64,000 nt of DNA from a virus (IMGVR_UViG_2703718833_000007:6191-70190), one strand, 5' to 3'. Shown: positions 9,665-38,420, counted from the first letter of the stretch. The notes: generated from the sequence alone by a model not told the origin. A program made the numbers and translations.

Positions 9665-10148
9665 CAGGTTATTAGCCTGCGTTTATGTCGCCGTTTTCGT
9701 GATCATCAACCTTATTGTTAACCATTGCGGCCCGTGGGTAATTCCGATCACCACGGTAGCCGCTGTGTGTGTCAATATGATGATCCGTGACTTCTTGCTG
9801 TATGACGGCGGCTTGAAATGGTCTGCTACAACATGCGCCGCCGCTGGCGCAATCACGGTAATGATAAATTACGATGCTGGAATGGTAGCGATCGCGTCAT
9901 TCGTTGCGGTTGTTTCCGGTGCGCTTATATCTGGAGGTGTTTACCGGGTTTTGCCTGGTGATTTCGATTCTAAGCGCTGGCCTGCAAACATAGCTTCAGC
10001 CATCGGGGATGCGTTAATTTTCCCGACGCTATCGTTTATGGCGTTTATGCCGGAAATATCAGCGATGCAGTTTATCTCAAAAATGGCAGCGGTAACGGTG
10101 ATCACTATCATCATGCGCCGCTATTTCACGTTTGAGGGTAGAAAATGA
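9645..10148 (+). CDS. Multi-pass inner-membrane protein, possibly VUT/YhhQ-like (queuosine-precursor transporter family)
   Basis: Track ORF 9603-10148, start taken at MKKVAIDRLL with AAGAGG SD; 4-5 hydrophobic segments; family assignment from loose pattern resemblance only. Confidence 0.35.
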   Translation: MKKVAIDRLLACVYVAVFVIINLIVNHCGPWVIPITTVAAVCVNMMIRDFLLYDGGLKWSATTCAAAGAITVMINYDAGMVAIASFVAVVSGALISGGVYRVLPGDFDSKRWPANIASAIGDALIFPTLSFMAFMPEISAMQFISKMAAVTVITIIMRRYFTFEGRK

Positions 10149-10672
10149 ATTGGGATGATTATTTTATATACAATCCGGACACAGGTAAGTTGTACTGGAA
10201 ATATAGAAATGACATAGAAGAATCAAGGCGTAAACAATGGAATGCGTGTAATGCTGGTCATGAGGTTGGACATATTGGCGGAAGCGGTGGGTGTCTTAAT
10301 ACAGCGCTTACCGTTGGCGGAAAGCGTTATAATTTAAAAGTACATAGAATATGTTACGAGATGTACTATGGGCCAATACCTGAAGGTAAGGAGGTTGATC
10401 ATATAAATCACGTTAAAACAGATAATCGAGCCGTCAATCTTGGATTAAAAGACCATAAAGATAATATGCGCAACATGTCTTTAATGGTAAACAATACCAG
10501 TGGGTGCGCTGGTATCCATAAAAATAAACATGGTAAATGGGTTGTTAGAATCGGTGGAGGCAAAAGAGGTAATAGAATTTATATAGGGTGTTTTTCTGAT
10601 ATCAATGACGCAATAAAAGCTAGGCGCGACGCTGAAAGAAAGTATGGCTATCATGAAAATCACGGCAAATAG
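10145..10672 (+). CDS. HNH homing endonuclease (HNH_3 + AP2-like DNA-binding domain), paralogue 1 of 4
   Basis: Track ORF 175 aa; INW-DYF start motif, GPIPEG-EVDHINH HNH core, C-terminal AP2-like (AGIHKNKHGKWVVRI). Confidence 0.85.
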   Translation: MNWDDYFIYNPDTGKLYWKYRNDIEESRRKQWNACNAGHEVGHIGGSGGCLNTALTVGGKRYNLKVHRICYEMYYGPIPEGKEVDHINHVKTDNRAVNLGLKDHKDNMRNMSLMVNNTSGCAGIHKNKHGKWVVRIGGGKRGNRIYIGCFSDINDAIKARRDAERKYGYHENHGK

Positions 10673-32167: not shown

Positions 32168-34513
32168 ATGGCTACCAGTTTAGGTACAATTTATTACGAA
32201 GTTGATGCAAAAACTGGTCAACTTCTAGTCGCTCAGAGACAGGCTGATCAGGCTTTTGACAGTATAGAGCGCGGCGCAAAACGTGCCGACCGCCAGGTGA
32301 ACACGCTTAAGACTTCAATCAAAGCACTATCCAGGGTCATCCATCTGTTACTTGCTGCGGAGGCTGTGCGCCAGTTTATTGACATGGCGGAGCAAGCAAA
32401 AATGCTTCGTGTCAAAATTAAAATGCTCACAGGTGACGCAGAGGCTGCAGGACGTGTTTTTGACGGCCTGAAAAAAATATCAAAGGAAACCGGGCAAAGC
32501 CTTAAAGACACTGGCGAATTGTGGCAGGGCCTGGCTATTTCACTAAAGAACACTTCCGCTACGGAAGGCCAATTGCTCAACCTGGTTGGCACTATTCAGA
32601 AGATGGGTGCGTTAGGAGGCGCGTCAGCGGAACAGATGTCTAATTCTATGCGCCAGTTCCGCCAGTCTATAGACGGCGGCGTGCTGCGTGCTGAAGAGTT
32701 TAACAGCCTGTTAGAGAACACGCCGACCATCGTACAGACAATGGCCCGCCATATGGGGTTGTCAATGGGCCAGTTCCGCGCCGAAATGCTGGACGGCAAG
32801 ATCACGGCTGAAAGGATGGTTAACGCGATTCAGGCAGCTACACAGGAAACAAACGAGAAGTTTGCACAGTTGCCGCGCACGTCCGGCAAGGCTATCAATG
32901 AGCTTAAAGTTGAGGTGATGGGACTTGTCGAACAGTTAGACGATCTTTTCGGCATATCAGATGGCGTTGTGTCGGCAATAGACTTAATCACTGGTGGCGT
33001 TGAGGGATTAGGTAAAGGCGCAAAATTCGCCGCAACATGTTTCAATACACTAAAAACGGCTGGCAGTGAGTTCATAGACATGTTTGACGACGTGGCTGTT
33101 AAGGCTGGCGAGGTGGCGGAAGAAATCATTAGAATGGTAACGCCAATCAAGGCGCTAATGGATGGCTACAAATGGATGAAGGAGATTGTAGGAAAGCAAA
33201 CAGAAGAATATAACACCAATTATGAGAAGAAATACGGTAAAAGACTTGGTAAGGGAATGCAATTTTGGGATGATTGGCAGGCCGTACTTAACCAAACAAA
33301 AGAAAACAAAGGAACCGACACCGCTAACGACGGCAAGATCACCGGATTCGAGCCGCCAGTAGATAAGCCAGGAAAACCGAAAAAAGGCAAAAAAGACAAG
33401 AAATCTGAAGCTGATCGGCTTGGTGATGAAGGTGTAAGTGTCTCCGACCAGTACAACAAAGACGCCGCCGCTATGCGTAAAGCACTGGAGAACGGCAAGG
33501 CCATTGACGCTGCGTTTGCTCAGGGCAAAATAACCCTCCTTGAGTACAAGGCAGCGCAAAAGGGGATAGGCAAGGAACTGAAGGACGAATTGGCACAAAT
33601 CCCGGTAGAAGAATTGCAGGACAAATGGGCGCACATAGTAAGCCCGATGGATCAGCTTAAGGGCGAAATTGACCCAATCAAACAGGCGCAGAATGAATGG
33701 GCAGTAAGAAAGCAAATGTTATTAGACCTGGGCGCTACAGAGGCGCAACAGAGACAGGCGCAGTTAGAATATGAACAACAGATCCGCGATCTGAAGTGGG
33801 AGCAGTGGCAGGCGCAAAGCGACACAAACAGCCTGATCGGTGCTTGTGTTAGCGGCCTCAAAGGTGGCATGGGTAATGCTCTTACCGGCCTGCTAAACGG
33901 CACTCAATCATTAAGCGAGGTTTTCGCCAACCTGGGAAGCAGCATACTTAACACCGTTGGCAACAAACTCTCAGAAATAGCCGCTAACTGGATAGCAGAT
34001 CAGTTAATGATGGAAACGCAAAGCAAGGCTACCCAGGCAAGCACTGCGGCTGGCGCTGTGGCTGCCCAGGGTGAGATCGCGGCAGCGGCGGCCCCGGCAG
34101 CGGCGGCTACGGCTGCATCAACTGGCGGTAGTTGGGCTATGGCTGGTGCTGCGGCGCTTTCTGCGATCATGTCGCTGGCAACGTCAATTTTTGGCGGCGG
34201 GCGTTATAATGGTGGTTCTGTGAATGGTGGTAGTCTGTATCGCGTAGGGGAACACGGAATACCTGAGCTATTCCAGACGAGCAACGGGCGTCAGTATATG
34301 ATCCCTGGGGAAAATGGCAGGGTTATTCCTGGCCGCGATCTTTTCAGTGGTGGCGGCATTAATATGCCTGTTAACATCACTGTTCAGACCACAAACGGGT
34401 TTAGCGACGAGGACAGTCGCAGACTTGAGCAGACAATGGAACGTGTAGCGATGAAAATGATGGCAAGGGAATCGCAACGACCGGGCGGAATGTTGCAACC
34501 TCGCCGCAAATAA
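32168..34513 (+). CDS. Tail tape-measure protein
   Basis: Track ORF 781 aa; helical N-terminal two-thirds, Gly/Ala-rich C-terminal region; position. Confidence 0.9.
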   Translation: MATSLGTIYYEVDAKTGQLLVAQRQADQAFDSIERGAKRADRQVNTLKTSIKALSRVIHLLLAAEAVRQFIDMAEQAKMLRVKIKMLTGDAEAAGRVFDGLKKISKETGQSLKDTGELWQGLAISLKNTSATEGQLLNLVGTIQKMGALGGASAEQMSNSMRQFRQSIDGGVLRAEEFNSLLENTPTIVQTMARHMGLSMGQFRAEMLDGKITAERMVNAIQAATQETNEKFAQLPRTSGKAINELKVEVMGLVEQLDDLFGISDGVVSAIDLITGGVEGLGKGAKFAATCFNTLKTAGSEFIDMFDDVAVKAGEVAEEIIRMVTPIKALMDGYKWMKEIVGKQTEEYNTNYEKKYGKRLGKGMQFWDDWQAVLNQTKENKGTDTANDGKITGFEPPVDKPGKPKKGKKDKKSEADRLGDEGVSVSDQYNKDAAAMRKALENGKAIDAAFAQGKITLLEYKAAQKGIGKELKDELAQIPVEELQDKWAHIVSPMDQLKGEIDPIKQAQNEWAVRKQMLLDLGATEAQQRQAQLEYEQQIRDLKWEQWQAQSDTNSLIGACVSGLKGGMGNALTGLLNGTQSLSEVFANLGSSILNTVGNKLSEIAANWIADQLMMETQSKATQASTAAGAVAAQGEIAAAAAPAAAATAASTGGSWAMAGAAALSAIMSLATSIFGGGRYNGGSVNGGSLYRVGEHGIPELFQTSNGRQYMIPGENGRVIPGRDLFSGGGINMPVNITVQTTNGFSDEDSRRLEQTMERVAMKMMARESQRPGGMLQPRRK

Positions 34514-34519
34514 ACAAAA

Positions 34520-34547
34520 CCCCGGTACAATGCCGGGGCTATTTTTA
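34520..34547 (+). terminator. Rho-independent terminator after tape-measure gene
   Basis: ccccgg-tacaatg-ccgggg hairpin followed by T-rich tract. Confidence 0.7.
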
Positions 34548-34984
34548 GTTGTTCTCAAAACTTGTATATCCTCTTTCAATTTTTCCACCGTGTACGCTTC
34601 TGGCAAATACCGCGTCAGTATACCTGAAAAATGGGCATGTATATGTATCCCCTTTACTATCCATATATTTTAGCACCCATGCTATGCGTTTTACGTTGCT
34701 TTTATTTGCCGGATTTTTCATTTTATTTTTCCTCCGCAAATCACAATCTTCCGTTTCTTGCTATATAGCTGCGAGCAAACATCACCTGCCAGATGTTCCA
34801 AATCTCACGCCACGTAAATTCATCATCTTCCATATCTCACACCATCGCGCTTGTATGGTTCGCCATCAGCAAACGGGATTAACTCATCGTTTGCCACCAT
34901 TCGATTAAACCAGTCTTTCAGAACAACCAGGGAGAACCGGATCCCGTAACTGTGCAATTCGCGCCACCTCATTTATGTGCCACC

Positions 34985-35491
34985 CTATTTACCGTGATTT
35001 GGATGAAAACCGTATTTAATTTCGGATTCTTGCCTTGCCTTGATTGCATCATCTTTGCTTTTGAATACCCCTAAATGTTTTAATTTTCCGTTGATTCTGA
35101 TAACTGCGCACCATTTACGCAATCTTTCAAGCCAATAAACACCAGCACAGCCGGATTTATTATTATGGTTGCGACTTCTGTTGTGGTTATTGTCTTGGCA
35201 GGTAACTAGCCGCAAATTTTCTATATGGTTGTTTACCTTATTGTGATCGATATGATCTATTTCCATTCCTTCCGGGATTGGTCCGTTGTGCATTTCCCAT
35301 ATAATTCTATGCTCTTGGTATATCCTCCTGTTAAACCCTACATGTATATACCCACTTCGTTTATGAAGGCACCCGGCTCGCTTTCCCGCATATCTTGAAT
35401 TCCAGGTTTTGGAAACGCCATTTCTTGGCTTCCATAATATAGCGCCGTCACTGTATATAAAATAATCATTCCAGTTAATTACTTGTGACAT
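34985..35491 (-). CDS. HNH homing endonuclease (HNH_3 + AP2-like), paralogue 4 of 4, opposite strand
   Basis: Track ORF 168 aa; INWNDYFIY, GPIPEGMEIDHIDHN, SGCAGVYWLERLRKWCAVI motifs. Confidence 0.85.
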   Translation of the reverse strand: MSQVINWNDYFIYSDGAILWKPRNGVSKTWNSRYAGKRAGCLHKRSGYIHVGFNRRIYQEHRIIWEMHNGPIPEGMEIDHIDHNKVNNHIENLRLVTCQDNNHNRSRNHNNKSGCAGVYWLERLRKWCAVIRINGKLKHLGVFKSKDDAIKARQESEIKYGFHPNHGK

Positions 35492-35733
35492 CCGCGCACC
35501 CCTGACAATTCATTAAATTTGTGATGCTCGACGATTACCCATGCTTTCAAGTCCTGGCTATAAACACGCCAATCTAAATTGGCGCGGAAGGCGTAGCCGT
35601 AGCCGTCCTTTAATTTTTTGGGTGCAACATCCTTGTTTAAAAACGCGTTCAGAAGTGCTTTTGCTTTTTTGATTACGTGTCCAGGTGCGTTTTTCTGTGC
35701 TTTAAGATTTTTGTCAATCATTACCAATTTCAT
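35479..35733 (-). CDS. Hypothetical protein, possibly RelE/ParE-fold toxin-like
   Basis: Track ORF 84 aa; WRVYSQDLKAWVIVEHH loosely resembles the RelE/ParE C-terminal strand pattern; weak. Confidence 0.35.
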   Translation of the reverse strand: MKLVMIDKNLKAQKNAPGHVIKKAKALLNAFLNKDVAPKKLKDGYGYAFRANLDWRVYSQDLKAWVIVEHHKFNELSGVRGCHK

Positions 35734-35753
35734 AACTCACCCCACGCAATCCA

Positions 35754-35909
35754 TTAGTTGACCACTTTCAGGAAGAAATCACGGTATTCATCTTCTTTTG
35801 CGTTCATCATGAATTGACCGTATTTGAATGCGTCATCAAAGCCTTTTACAATCGCCACTTCCACCTGTTCGAATGCTTTGTTTAGCATTACCACTACATA
35901 GCGTTTCAT
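35754..35909 (-). CDS. Hypothetical small protein (51 aa), upstream partner of the 84-aa ORF
   Basis: Track ORF 35754-35960 trimmed to MKRYVVV with G-rich SD. Confidence 0.35.
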   Translation of the reverse strand: MKRYVVVMLNKAFEQVEVAIVKGFDDAFKYGQFMMNAKEDEYRDFFLKVVN

Positions 35910-36024
35910 GATGCCCCCCCTTTGTTGGTACTTCTTTCTCTTCTTGCTTTCTATATACATCTTGTTATGTCCTGTGTGAAGCCATTTTGTAAACTGGGTA
36001 TAATTCTTGTGACGAAGTTCTCAT

Positions 36025-36052
36025 TTTTCGCGTAGAAGCGCGTAAAGATGTA
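36025..36052 (+). promoter_or_regulatory. Conserved 28-bp near-palindromic element, copy 2 (TTTTCGCGTAGAAGCGCGTAAAGATGTA)
   Basis: 25/28 identical to copy at 22811-22838; lies between CCATTTTGTAAA/TATAAT element and gene M. Confidence 0.35.
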
Positions 36053-36079
36053 TGCAATATGTAACTTATAGGGGGAATC

Positions 36080-36433
36080 ATGCCGGAAGTTTTCAGATGG
36101 ACGCCACAAAGAAGCTACAGCGTGACCAGGGAACCAAATGTGTCGGTCGTTAAACTTGGTGATGGTTATGAACAGCGCCAGGCGAAAGGGATTAACACGT
36201 TGCTTGATAGCTACACCCTGGTTTTTAAAGGCAGTAGCGCAGGATGCGGTGATGGTGGGAACGTGGCGATCCAGGCAGAAGCATTCTTGAGGGCGCGCGG
36301 CGCTGTCGAGGCTTTTTACTGGTCGCCGTCTATGGATGGCGTGCAAAGGCTTTTTGTTTGCCGTAGCTGGAGTATGACAAAAGACGGGCCTGTATACACG
36401 CTAAACGCAACATTTGAGCAAGTTGTCAGCTAG
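36080..36433 (+). CDS. Minor tail protein M (lambda gpM-like)
   Basis: Track ORF 117 aa; GDGYEQRQAKGIN and C-terminal FEQVV match remembered lambda M. Confidence 0.8.
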   Translation: MPEVFRWTPQRSYSVTREPNVSVVKLGDGYEQRQAKGINTLLDSYTLVFKGSSAGCGDGGNVAIQAEAFLRARGAVEAFYWSPSMDGVQRLFVCRSWSMTKDGPVYTLNATFEQVVS

Positions 36434-36444
36434 TGGGGGTTAAT

Positions 36445-36630
36445 ATGTACGGGACTTGTGTAGTTGACAAAACTGACGCATTTACATTATTTGACGACTA
36501 TGAGATCAACGACCTTACTGTAAAGGCTGACAATGGCGATACATGGTATCTTCATGATGTTGGTGACGGGTATGTGGGGTGCAGATCCAGAGAAGGCAAG
36601 GAGGTTTTATTTTTGGTTGATGGCGTATAA
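36445..36630 (+). CDS. Hypothetical protein (61 aa)
   Basis: Track ORF 36433-36630 trimmed to ATG. Confidence 0.35.
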   Translation: MYGTCVVDKTDAFTLFDDYEINDLTVKADNGDTWYLHDVGDGYVGCRSREGKEVLFLVDGV

Positions 36631-36809
36631 TAACAACCCCGCTTCGCGCGGGGTTTTCTTGTCAGTAGTGAATGTACATCAAACTCATTGGGTGAGCGTG
36701 CGCCATATTATTGGCTATCGCCGCCCAGTCCCAATCGGCAGCATGAACGCCAAATACTATCAGTCCCATTATTATTAGCGCCAAAACTTCTATTTTCATA
36801 ATCTGTCAC

Positions 36810-37058
36810 CTATAAGTTATCACGCAGGTAATTAACGCCCTTATCAGTGACGAATGAATGGTTGACCTGGTTTTCATCCGTCATAATGATGAATAACTTT
36901 TCTTGTAGGTACTTAGCTTTCGGGTACAGCGTTAAACAGACCTGGTACAGTATCCCGCGCTCAATCAGCAAATCAATAAATTCGTGCTCATGATAACCGA
37001 TGATGCGAGCGGCCTGTTTCAACGTGTACACATAATCGCCGTGATTGCGCCGCGCCAT
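36810..37058 (-). CDS. Opposite-strand moron: hypothetical protein with HTH-like segment
   Basis: Track ORF 82 aa; YTLKQAARIIGYHEHEFIDLLIERG. Confidence 0.4.
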   Translation of the reverse strand: MARRNHGDYVYTLKQAARIIGYHEHEFIDLLIERGILYQVCLTLYPKAKYLQEKLFIIMTDENQVNHSFVTDKGVNYLRDNL

Positions 37059-37067
37059 ATTGCCGCC

Positions 37068-37418
37068 TTATTTATCGAACGCAGACAAATTATCGATACA
37101 GAAATCTTTTGCCGCTTTTTCGTATTCGCGTTTTGCTTCTGGAACGTCAACCGGAAAACCTTTTGCGTGTATTTCACCAGGGCAAGACTGATCCATAGAA
37201 TCCGCAAAATTAACATTGAAGCTAACATCAATATCTTTAGGGTTCATCTCTTCCACCATATCAGGTACTTGGACCGGAGTAATATCAAAATCACGAGCGT
37301 TAGACCAACAGCGAAGTAATTCGCGACCTTCATCACGCGCCGCAGCATATGTGTCAAATAGGCCCATGCGTTCCCATTCACATTTATCAGTCCAAATTTC
37401 TAAACTATATTTTTGCAT
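37068..37418 (-). CDS. Opposite-strand moron: hypothetical acidic protein
   Basis: Track ORF 116 aa. Confidence 0.4.
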   Translation of the reverse strand: MQKYSLEIWTDKCEWERMGLFDTYAAARDEGRELLRCWSNARDFDITPVQVPDMVEEMNPKDIDVSFNVNFADSMDQSCPGEIHAKGFPVDVPEAKREYEKAAKDFCIDNLSAFDK

Positions 37419-37431
37419 TTTTGTTAACCTC

Positions 37432-37605
37432 TCATTTGACAGGTTCTATCCTGTACCCCAAAACGCGGTCATCCTCAGCAAGTAAAAGCGCGTCAGTAAG
37501 TGCCTCGCCTTCATCCTTATACAGAGCTACAGTCATTTCCCTGCCATCCGCTAGGAATACCTTCAATCTCCACACCTTATCAACCATCTCACACCTCCGC
37601 GCCAT
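37432..37605 (-). CDS. Opposite-strand moron: hypothetical protein (57 aa)
   Basis: Track ORF 37432-37662 trimmed to MARRCEM. Confidence 0.35.
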   Translation of the reverse strand: MARRCEMVDKVWRLKVFLADGREMTVALYKDEGEALTDALLLAEDDRVLGYRIEPVK

Positions 37606-37715
37606 TTTGTTAACCCTGCTTTCTTTTGAGTACAATATACATATTGTAAAAAGCGCTATCAACCGTTTTGGTATGATTTAGCGTGACGGCGATCACAAAA
37701 TGACAAGGTGATAAA

Positions 37716-38420
37716 ATGCGCAGCATACCTACAGAAATGATTATTGATTCCGTGGATTCCGGAGTCGGCGCGGTAATTGACTTGTTTGAATTGGACCTCA
37801 CGCCCCTGGGTGGCGAGGTTATCCGCTTCCATTCCGGCGCGAATGGCTATTACGGCCCGGTTATCTGGAAGGGAGTGGCTTACAACAGCTACCCAATCGA
37901 GGTAACTGGCTTCGAAATGAAAAACGAAGGCGTTTACTCACGCCCACAAATGGTAGTAGCTAACATTGGCGGGCTAATCACTGGGATGAATAACGATTTT
38001 AACGACCTTCGAGGAATGAAGGTTACGCGCCGCCAGGTGGAAGTAAAATACCTTGACGCTATCAACTTCCCCAACGGCAACCCAGATGCAGATCCATCTA
38101 TTGAGGCTGTATCTTTTTACGTCGTTGAGGCGATGAGCGAAGAAACAGCCGACCAGGTGCAATATGAACTATCAACGCCAATTGATGCTGATAAAGCTGT
38201 TATCCCTGGGCGCACAATTCTCGCTGACGTTTGCCAATGGCAGTATCGCGGAGACGGTTGCGGATATAGTGGCGGCCCTGTAGCTACTGATAAAGACGAA
38301 TCGACCAGCGATCCAAAGATGGACAAATGCAGCCACCGCCTAAGCGGTTGCCGTTTGCGTTTCCCGCGCCCGAATCCGTTACCAATTTCATGTTTCCCTG
38401 GATCGAGCAAGGTGGGTTGA
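37716..38420 (+). CDS. Minor tail protein L (lambda gpL-like)
   Basis: Track ORF 234 aa; C-terminal Cys cluster; position. Confidence 0.8.
   Translation: MRSIPTEMIIDSVDSGVGAVIDLFELDLTPLGGEVIRFHSGANGYYGPVIWKGVAYNSYPIEVTGFEMKNEGVYSRPQMVVANIGGLITGMNNDFNDLRGMKVTRRQVEVKYLDAINFPNGNPDADPSIEAVSFYVVEAMSEETADQVQYELSTPIDADKAVIPGRTILADVCQWQYRGDGCGYSGGPVATDKDESTSDPKMDKCSHRLSGCRLRFPRPNPLPISCFPGSSKVG

Follow-up and report, generated by a model that had tools for sequence, protein, structure and literature searches.

The toxin-antitoxin pair ParE2-PaaA2 is encoded on a prophage of Escherichia coli O157, and its antitoxin PaaA2 is a largely disordered helical protein. Phage T4 encodes RegB, an endoribonuclease of RelE/YoeB fold that acts on messenger RNA (mRNA) and has no known antitoxin (PMC3014915). 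Here, we analysed a stretch of 64,000 nucleotides (nt) of viral DNA (IMGVR_UViG_2703718833_000007:6191-70190, hereafter the window, meaning the whole stretch) that carries a minus-strand cassette between the tape-measure gene and the minor tail gene M. From its first gene on, the cassette encodes a protein of 51 amino acids (aa), a protein of 84 aa and an HNH endonuclease. By sequence comparison, the source is a temperate mEp021-like coliphage of the mEpimmI group, related to mEp515, mEp554 and mEp021. The 2.1 kilobases around the cassette are 95.8% identical to phage mEp515, and also match six further members of the group. The mEpimmI phages were described in PMC11893012, where the genes of the cassette are not discussed. 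An earlier note on this DNA had placed the cassette on the strand opposite to the tail genes, and had given the order as 51-aa gene, 84-aa gene and fourth HNH paralogue, the last two overlapping by 13 nt. The location is borne out by the list of open reading frames (ORFs) and by the sequence, and the order and the overlap (35479-35491) by the ORF list.

Our preferred explanation, to which we would give about an even chance, is that of a low-GC (guanine plus cytosine) accessory cassette of the "moron" type, transcribed against the tail operon. Its constant core would be the 84-aa protein, a putative effector of RelE/ParE fold, probably an RNase-type mRNA interferase. This protein would most likely hit host translation in the manner of RelE, YoeB or HigB, and could thereby modulate the host or exclude other phages. 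The 51-aa protein would be a co-transcribed and lineage-specific partner, usually kept yet dispensable, rather than an obligatory antitoxin. The HNH gene would be an independent selfish insertion.

The 84-aa protein matches the Pfam family PF24732 (ParE_like) with 31.5 bits, for a cut-off of 24.4 (E = 1.8e-7, residues 19-74). The cut-off was passed by eight of the eight relatives tested, and every full-length relative tested, including those of the profile-search set, matches this family. RefSeq names near-identical copies in E. coli prophages "ParE family toxin-like protein", a name also found in UniRef. The resemblance to RelE/ParE toxins that the earlier note had loosely suspected is thus upheld by the Pfam match, by the relatives and by the RefSeq name. 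The PHROG family of the protein is unannotated, and NCBIfam and PADLOC gave nothing useful for it or for the 51-aa protein. We found no experimental study of PF24732, or of "ParE family toxin-like" proteins, in the searchable literature; hence, the name predicts a fold and not a demonstrated function. Homologues are few: a word-indexed search returned eight clusters, a profile search extended the set to 24 proteins, and an exhaustive HMMER search of 1.8 billion representative proteins gave only 12 at E ≤ 1e-3, so that a deep alignment of the family cannot be built. A scan of viral contigs with the close alignment retrieved the same phage lineage only. The AlphaFold model based on the 24 sequences has a predicted local distance difference test (pLDDT) score of 82.9 and the predicted order strand-strand-helix-strand-strand-strand-helix. 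The assignment to the RelE/ParE fold is consistent but weak, and draws mainly on the curated Pfam model and on the make-up of the lists of structural hits.

The positions conserved among the 24 sequences are K23, K40, G44, R56 (24/24), H70 (21/24), an aromatic residue at 73 (24/24) and N/D74; residues 55-71 read WRVYSQDLKAWVIVEHH. This pattern of lysine, arginine, histidine and aromatic residues resembles RNase-type toxins (RelE, YoeB) more than ParE. We favour a predicted RNase-type activity over that of the gyrase-poisoning ParE class because the invariant Arg56, the conserved His70 and the aromatic residue at 73 fit it better. The median ratio of non-synonymous to synonymous substitution rates (dN/dS) is 0.07 for the 84-aa gene (13 homologous loci) and 0.045 for the 51-aa gene (10 homologous loci). 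Both genes are therefore under purifying selection, and the low ratios indicate that both small ORFs are real genes. The family-wide conservation and the strong purifying selection are explained by a retained active site no less well than by a domesticated, non-toxic fold, which could be a regulator that binds RNA or the ribosome, or an anti-defence decoy, next to an unrelated 51-aa gene. We regard the latter explanation as distinctly improbable, even if it would agree with the tolerance of the 84-aa gene for the loss of its neighbour, with the weak similarity to characterised toxins and with a small family found largely on phages and mobile elements.

The case for a dispensable partner comes from natural deletions. 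In the prophage of UMNK88, the 51-aa gene is cleanly deleted, and its leader runs straight into the start codon of the 84-aa gene, which is intact. The IMG/VR phage L066 shows the same junction, and in both the deletion (2440-2510) runs between the two G-rich Shine-Dalgarno sequences. The flanks of the two loci are only 85-94% identical, and their 84-aa genes differ at 10 nt (eight silent differences and two replacements). The two residues that differ also occur in 84-aa alleles accompanied by a 51-aa gene. This pattern implies that the two lineages diverged appreciably while their 84-aa genes stayed intact in the absence of the 51-aa gene. A further locus, L070, is identical to UMNK88. The deletions speak against a lethal toxin that must be kept in check by the 51-aa protein, and would still be compatible with a modulatory interaction.

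The sequences of the two proteins point the same way. Their divergences are uncorrelated (r = 0.04): the 51-aa proteins of the window and of mEp013 are identical beside 84-aa proteins that are 63% identical, and those of MagusPhagus and M1/5 are identical beside 84-aa proteins that are 67% identical. The 51-aa protein had no match in Pfam, NCBIfam or PADLOC, belonged to no antitoxin family, and showed no antitoxin or DNA-binding fold and no predicted disordered tail. It is near-neutral (isoelectric point, pI, of 6.1) and is predicted to fold into a compact beta-beta-alpha-beta structure. No homologue of it was found among the neighbours of ten distant ParE_like genes. Given the missing family and fold, the lack of co-variation, the absence of distant homologues and the losses in UMNK88 and L066, the 51-aa protein is probably not a required antidote of the 84-aa protein, and we do not retain the role of antitoxin that the earlier note had offered for it. 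The same results, i.e., an intact and conserved 84-aa gene in two diverged phages after loss of its neighbour, the lack of antitoxin features and the near-constant partner of variable alleles, reduce the probability of a genuine two-gene toxin-antitoxin module, where the 51-aa protein would be a new compact antitoxin neutralising an 84-aa toxin, and the pair would stabilise the prophage or abort infections by other phages. We consider such a module unlikely.

Several results weigh against our preferred explanation. The 51-aa gene adjoins the 84-aa gene in 54 of the 57 loci examined, in the canonical order of antitoxin then toxin, as expected from a toxin-antitoxin pair. Among the 44 IMG/VR loci, 42 have the 51-aa gene upstream of the 84-aa gene, with a gap of 17-21 nt in 41 of the 42 and of 37 nt in L075. 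The two genes make up the entire cassette in about a dozen loci. In several distant branches, the ParE_like gene is followed by a gene of about 90 aa that is closely linked to it or overlaps it, which suggests that two-gene modules exist in the wider family. When the 84-aa protein and the profile of its 24-sequence family were compared with all PDB chains, no toxin was found and the best hits were at chance level. The alignment of the family to the sequence of E. coli YoeB with hhalign was not significant (R56 is placed opposite the catalytic R65 of YoeB). A promoter scan of the intergenic region upstream of the cassette gave zero minus-strand hits, and thus no confident promoter. In profile searches, the kind of check that the earlier note had named, the 84-aa protein matched a toxin-fold family in Pfam and no toxin in the PDB, and the 51-aa protein matched no antitoxin family.

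The toxin-antitoxin module would account for part of these results: a small gene, a 20-nt gap and a toxin-fold gene follow one conserved upstream region, and the pair is the invariant core of a cassette that is variable downstream. The module would also agree with a basic effector (pI 9.96) next to a near-neutral partner, with purifying selection on both genes, with membership in a toxin family and with the small linked neighbours in other branches. Yet, the adjacency is confined to one syntenic phage lineage, and is therefore not independent evidence of a functional link. We found the pair in 35 of 5426 complete E. coli genomes, invariably between gene M and the tape-measure gene. Compared with type II toxin-antitoxin systems, the locus has the gene order and the spacing, but neither a known antitoxin family nor co-maintenance and co-evolution of the two genes.

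The ParE_like family is mostly carried on phages and mobile elements. Distant members are found within arrays of small early-type phage genes, including the early gene arrays of large phages. One of them lies directly upstream of a gene for a T7-type single-subunit RNA polymerase (L031 2444-2653; loci L031/L032), and another is beside ArdA, an integrase and a T7-type polymerase (L015 3001-3243). Others adjoin the Tn7-like transposition genes tnsA/tnsB (L024 593-823) or BrxR (L014 3001-3231), or belong to an Enterobacter island with AlpA and a ParB-HTH (helix-turn-helix) protein. These contexts are phage early regions and mobile elements, not chromosomal toxin-antitoxin loci. No universal partner of ParE_like genes was found among the neighbours of the ten distant members, as these neighbours are homologous only inside sub-branches. 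The family occurs in T7-like early regions, in the early arrays of large phages and in the cassette of a temperate phage. By analogy with T4 RegB, PF24732 might represent phage-specific, antitoxin-independent effectors of RelE fold that reprogram or shut off host translation, with the 51-aa protein as a new and optional modulator in the mEp021 lineage. We put this forward tentatively, as a doubtful possibility.

The HNH protein matches Pfam HNH_3 (71.6 bits), phrog_99 (3.2e-61) and the PADLOC models for homing endonucleases (HEase). We found homologues in 2852 phage records, T1-like phages included, many of them annotated as homing endonucleases. Three further paralogues are encoded on the plus strand of the window, among replication and head genes, without the 51-aa/84-aa pair alongside. 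An HNH gene is present at the 3' junction of the 84-aa gene in only three of the 57 loci (the window, mEp515 and the prophage E21845). It is missing there in mEp554, mEp013, mEp010, mEp021, MagusPhagus and all 44 IMG/VR loci, and also in the prophages M1/5, WCHEC025970, RM9245, N1286 and UMNK88. This distribution does not agree with the grouping, in the earlier note, of the endonuclease with the pair.

The two edges of the insertion are precise. The 84-aa gene ends with GGT TGC CAT AAG TGA in the HNH-free MagusPhagus and with GGA TGT CAC AAG TAA in the window, and both encode GCHK*. The four synonymous changes in the window create the start codon of the HNH gene (ggATGtca). After the HNH stop codon, GGTGGCACATAAATGA (34984-34969) copies the natural end of an 84-aa gene of mEp554 type (..AHK*); in the alignment with the HNH-free mEp554, GGGGCACATAAATGAGGTGGCGCG is the natural end of its 84-aa gene. 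The HNH gene of E21845 (L018 2922-3404) shares both junctions, the 13-nt overlap and the remnant with that of the window, and the two proteins are only 51% identical. The N- and C-termini of the two proteins are conserved and the middle has diverged, which suggests either that the gene has been at this site for long or that HNH paralogues have exchanged sequence by gene conversion. The presence/absence pattern and the flanking remnant are hallmarks of a free-standing homing endonuclease gene, not of a member of a three-gene unit. We infer that the HNH gene was inserted independently, and predict that its product cleaves DNA and mediates homing. It would have inserted itself into the final codons of the 84-aa gene and rebuilt the C-terminus of that gene (GCHK*) with synonymous changes that yield its own ATG, and its translation is probably coupled to that of the 84-aa gene.

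Because the 84-aa and HNH genes overlap by 13 nt on the same strand, one could also regard the 51-aa, 84-aa and HNH genes as a single functional unit, e.g., a pair that regulates or assists the endonuclease. This is very improbable, and we rejected it as contradicted by the presence/absence pattern (three of 57 loci for the HNH gene, 54 of 57 for the pair), besides the remnant of the target gene that flanks the HNH gene, the three paralogues of the window that lack such a pair and the spread of the HNH family over so many phage records. In another locus, L058 (IMGVR_UViG_2695420423_000006, about 1685-2164), a different HNH paralogue (50% identity) is encoded directly upstream of gene M and on its strand, at the opposite end of the conserved intergenic region. 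The neighbourhood of gene M resembles a hot spot for genes of homing endonucleases.

The HNH gene is followed on the minus strand by three further small ORFs of the cassette and a terminator (Table 1). The GC content of the cassette is 0.37-0.43 (0.389 for the HNH gene), against 0.51 in the flanking tail genes, which fits acquired accessory DNA. The first minus-strand ORF spans 35754-35960. Its ATG at 35909 is well supported as the start codon, gives 51 aa and is preceded at 5 nt by the Shine-Dalgarno sequence GGGGGGG. A reading of 68 aa from 35960 is unlikely, as related phages have indels of 1-2 nt in this part and RefSeq calls the 156-nt form. The 3' content of the cassette varies among related phages: M1/5 and about 12 IMG/VR loci carry the 51-aa and 84-aa genes only. 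In this 3' part, mEp013 (L004 110-1420) has a gene of 436 aa, mEp021 (L003 1905-3239) has a zinc-ribbon protein and a protein of 157 aa, and M1/5 has nothing. The 49-aa ORF of the window matched no Pfam or PHROG family.

Table 1. Positions of the cassette, its surroundings and related features in the window.
Feature	Position	Strand	Remarks
Tape-measure gene	32168-34513	+	flanks the cassette
Bidirectional intrinsic terminator	34518-34540	both	ends the tape-measure transcript and the minus-strand cassette (two-strand terminator scan)
58-aa ORF (MKNPANKSNVKR...)	34545-34721	-	last cassette gene; GGAGG Shine-Dalgarno; in 20/44 IMG/VR loci
30-aa ORF (MEDDEFTWREIWNIW...)	34741-34833	-	variable cargo; in 25/44 IMG/VR loci; missing from minimal cassettes
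49-aa ORF	34823-34972	-	variable cargo; in 5/44 IMG/VR loci, mEp554 and mEp515
Remnant of the 84-aa gene 3' end (GGTGGCACATAAATGA, ..AHK*)	34969-34984	-	overlaps the ATG of the 49-aa ORF; right edge of the HNH insertion
168-aa HNH gene	34985-35491	-	paralogue 4; ATG inside the last codons of the 84-aa gene
84-aa gene	35479-35733	-	basic protein, pI 9.96; member of Pfam PF24732 ParE_like
51-aa gene (MKRYVVVMLN...)	35754-35909	-	first cassette gene; phrog_29810; lineage-specific small protein
Divergent intergenic region, 170 nt	35910-36079	.	between the 51-aa gene and gene M; strongly conserved across nine phages/prophages
Candidate promoter TTCACA-N17-TATATA	35980-35952	-	read by eye
12-nt inverted repeat CATGATGCCCCC / GGGGGAATCATG	35907-35918, 36071-36082		mirrored Shine-Dalgarno/ATG of the 51-aa gene and gene M
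Minor tail gene M	36080-36433	+	matches Pfam Phage_min_tail
65-aa ORF	36433-36630		downstream of gene M; phrog_3249
Second minus-strand cassette	36635-37662	-	between the 65-aa ORF and gene L
Bidirectional terminator	36635-36655	both	ends the second cassette
82-aa ORF	36810-37058	-	KilAC/antirepressor-like; Pfam ANT, 30.8 bits
Gene L	37716-38420		
Four HNH paralogues	10145-10672, 18301-18822, 25077-25607; 34985-35491	+ (first three); - (last)	42-50% mutual identity

Transcription of the cassette probably starts in the conserved intergenic region upstream of the 51-aa gene, and would stop at the terminator that follows the tape-measure gene. In mEp515, mEp554, mEp010 and mEp021, terminators are annotated at the equivalent place. 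The candidate promoter lacks the consensus T at position 6 of its -10 hexamer, and we infer its use and the timing of expression from the sequence. A search for operator-like palindromes upstream of the cassette gave two kinds of inverted repeat only: one formed by the ribosome-binding sites and start codons of the two divergent genes, which mirror each other, and a pair of 9 nt separated by 81 nt. The intergenic region also holds the direct repeat TACGCG-N6-TACGCG. Among the features of morons, we observed a terminator, a divergent GC content and a variable downstream content, together with a promoter that is a by-eye candidate. A second minus-strand cassette is encoded on the other side of gene M. 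It holds ORFs of 76 aa (phrog_29559) and 116 aa (phrog_38567) and the 82-aa antirepressor-like ORF. The tail operon is thus interrupted twice by antisense cassettes.

The toxin-like label of the 84-aa family in Pfam and RefSeq was already known, and HNH homing endonucleases are commonplace in phages. The present analysis adds that the pairing of the two small genes is not obligatory, how precisely the HNH gene is inserted, and that distant members of the family are associated with phage early genes. For annotation, this means that a toxin-fold gene of a phage should not be taken for half of a toxin-antitoxin pair just because a small gene precedes it, and the natural deletion variants UMNK88 and L066 make the question directly testable in this case. 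The anatomy of the insertion shows how the start codon of a homing endonuclease can hide in synonymous positions of the last codons of its target gene.

How does this locus compare with known systems? The HNH gene shares with free-standing phage HNH endonucleases the HNH_3 domain, the polymorphic presence, the duplicated end of the target gene and the occurrence of several paralogues per genome; it is encoded on the strand opposite to its three paralogues in the window. The 84-aa protein has all the conserved residues of PF24732 and shows no sequence difference from the family. It has no significant sequence relationship to any solved toxin of the RelE/YoeB/HigB/YafQ mRNA interferases. These toxins have a helical hairpin, whereas the model of the 84-aa protein has one long helix, and no cognate antitoxin of RelB, YefM, HigA or DinJ type is recognisable beside its gene. 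ParE2-PaaA2 and other ParDE systems score lower for the 84-aa protein than the RNase-type toxins do. Unlike the largely disordered PaaA2, the 51-aa protein is predicted to be compact, and its gene is dispensable in nature. T4 RegB, with about 150 aa, is larger than the 84-aa protein, and was not among the structural matches listed for it. It is also an early gene of a lytic phage, whereas the 84-aa gene is part of an antisense cassette in the tail operon of a temperate phage. Still, RegB sets a precedent for phage effectors of RelE/YoeB fold that stand alone, and distant ParE_like genes are likewise found in phage early regions. If the 84-aa protein were an active RelE-type nuclease without an obligatory antidote, a small Pfam family so far defined by prediction only would gain a function, and stand-alone phage effectors of RelE fold would extend beyond T4 RegB.
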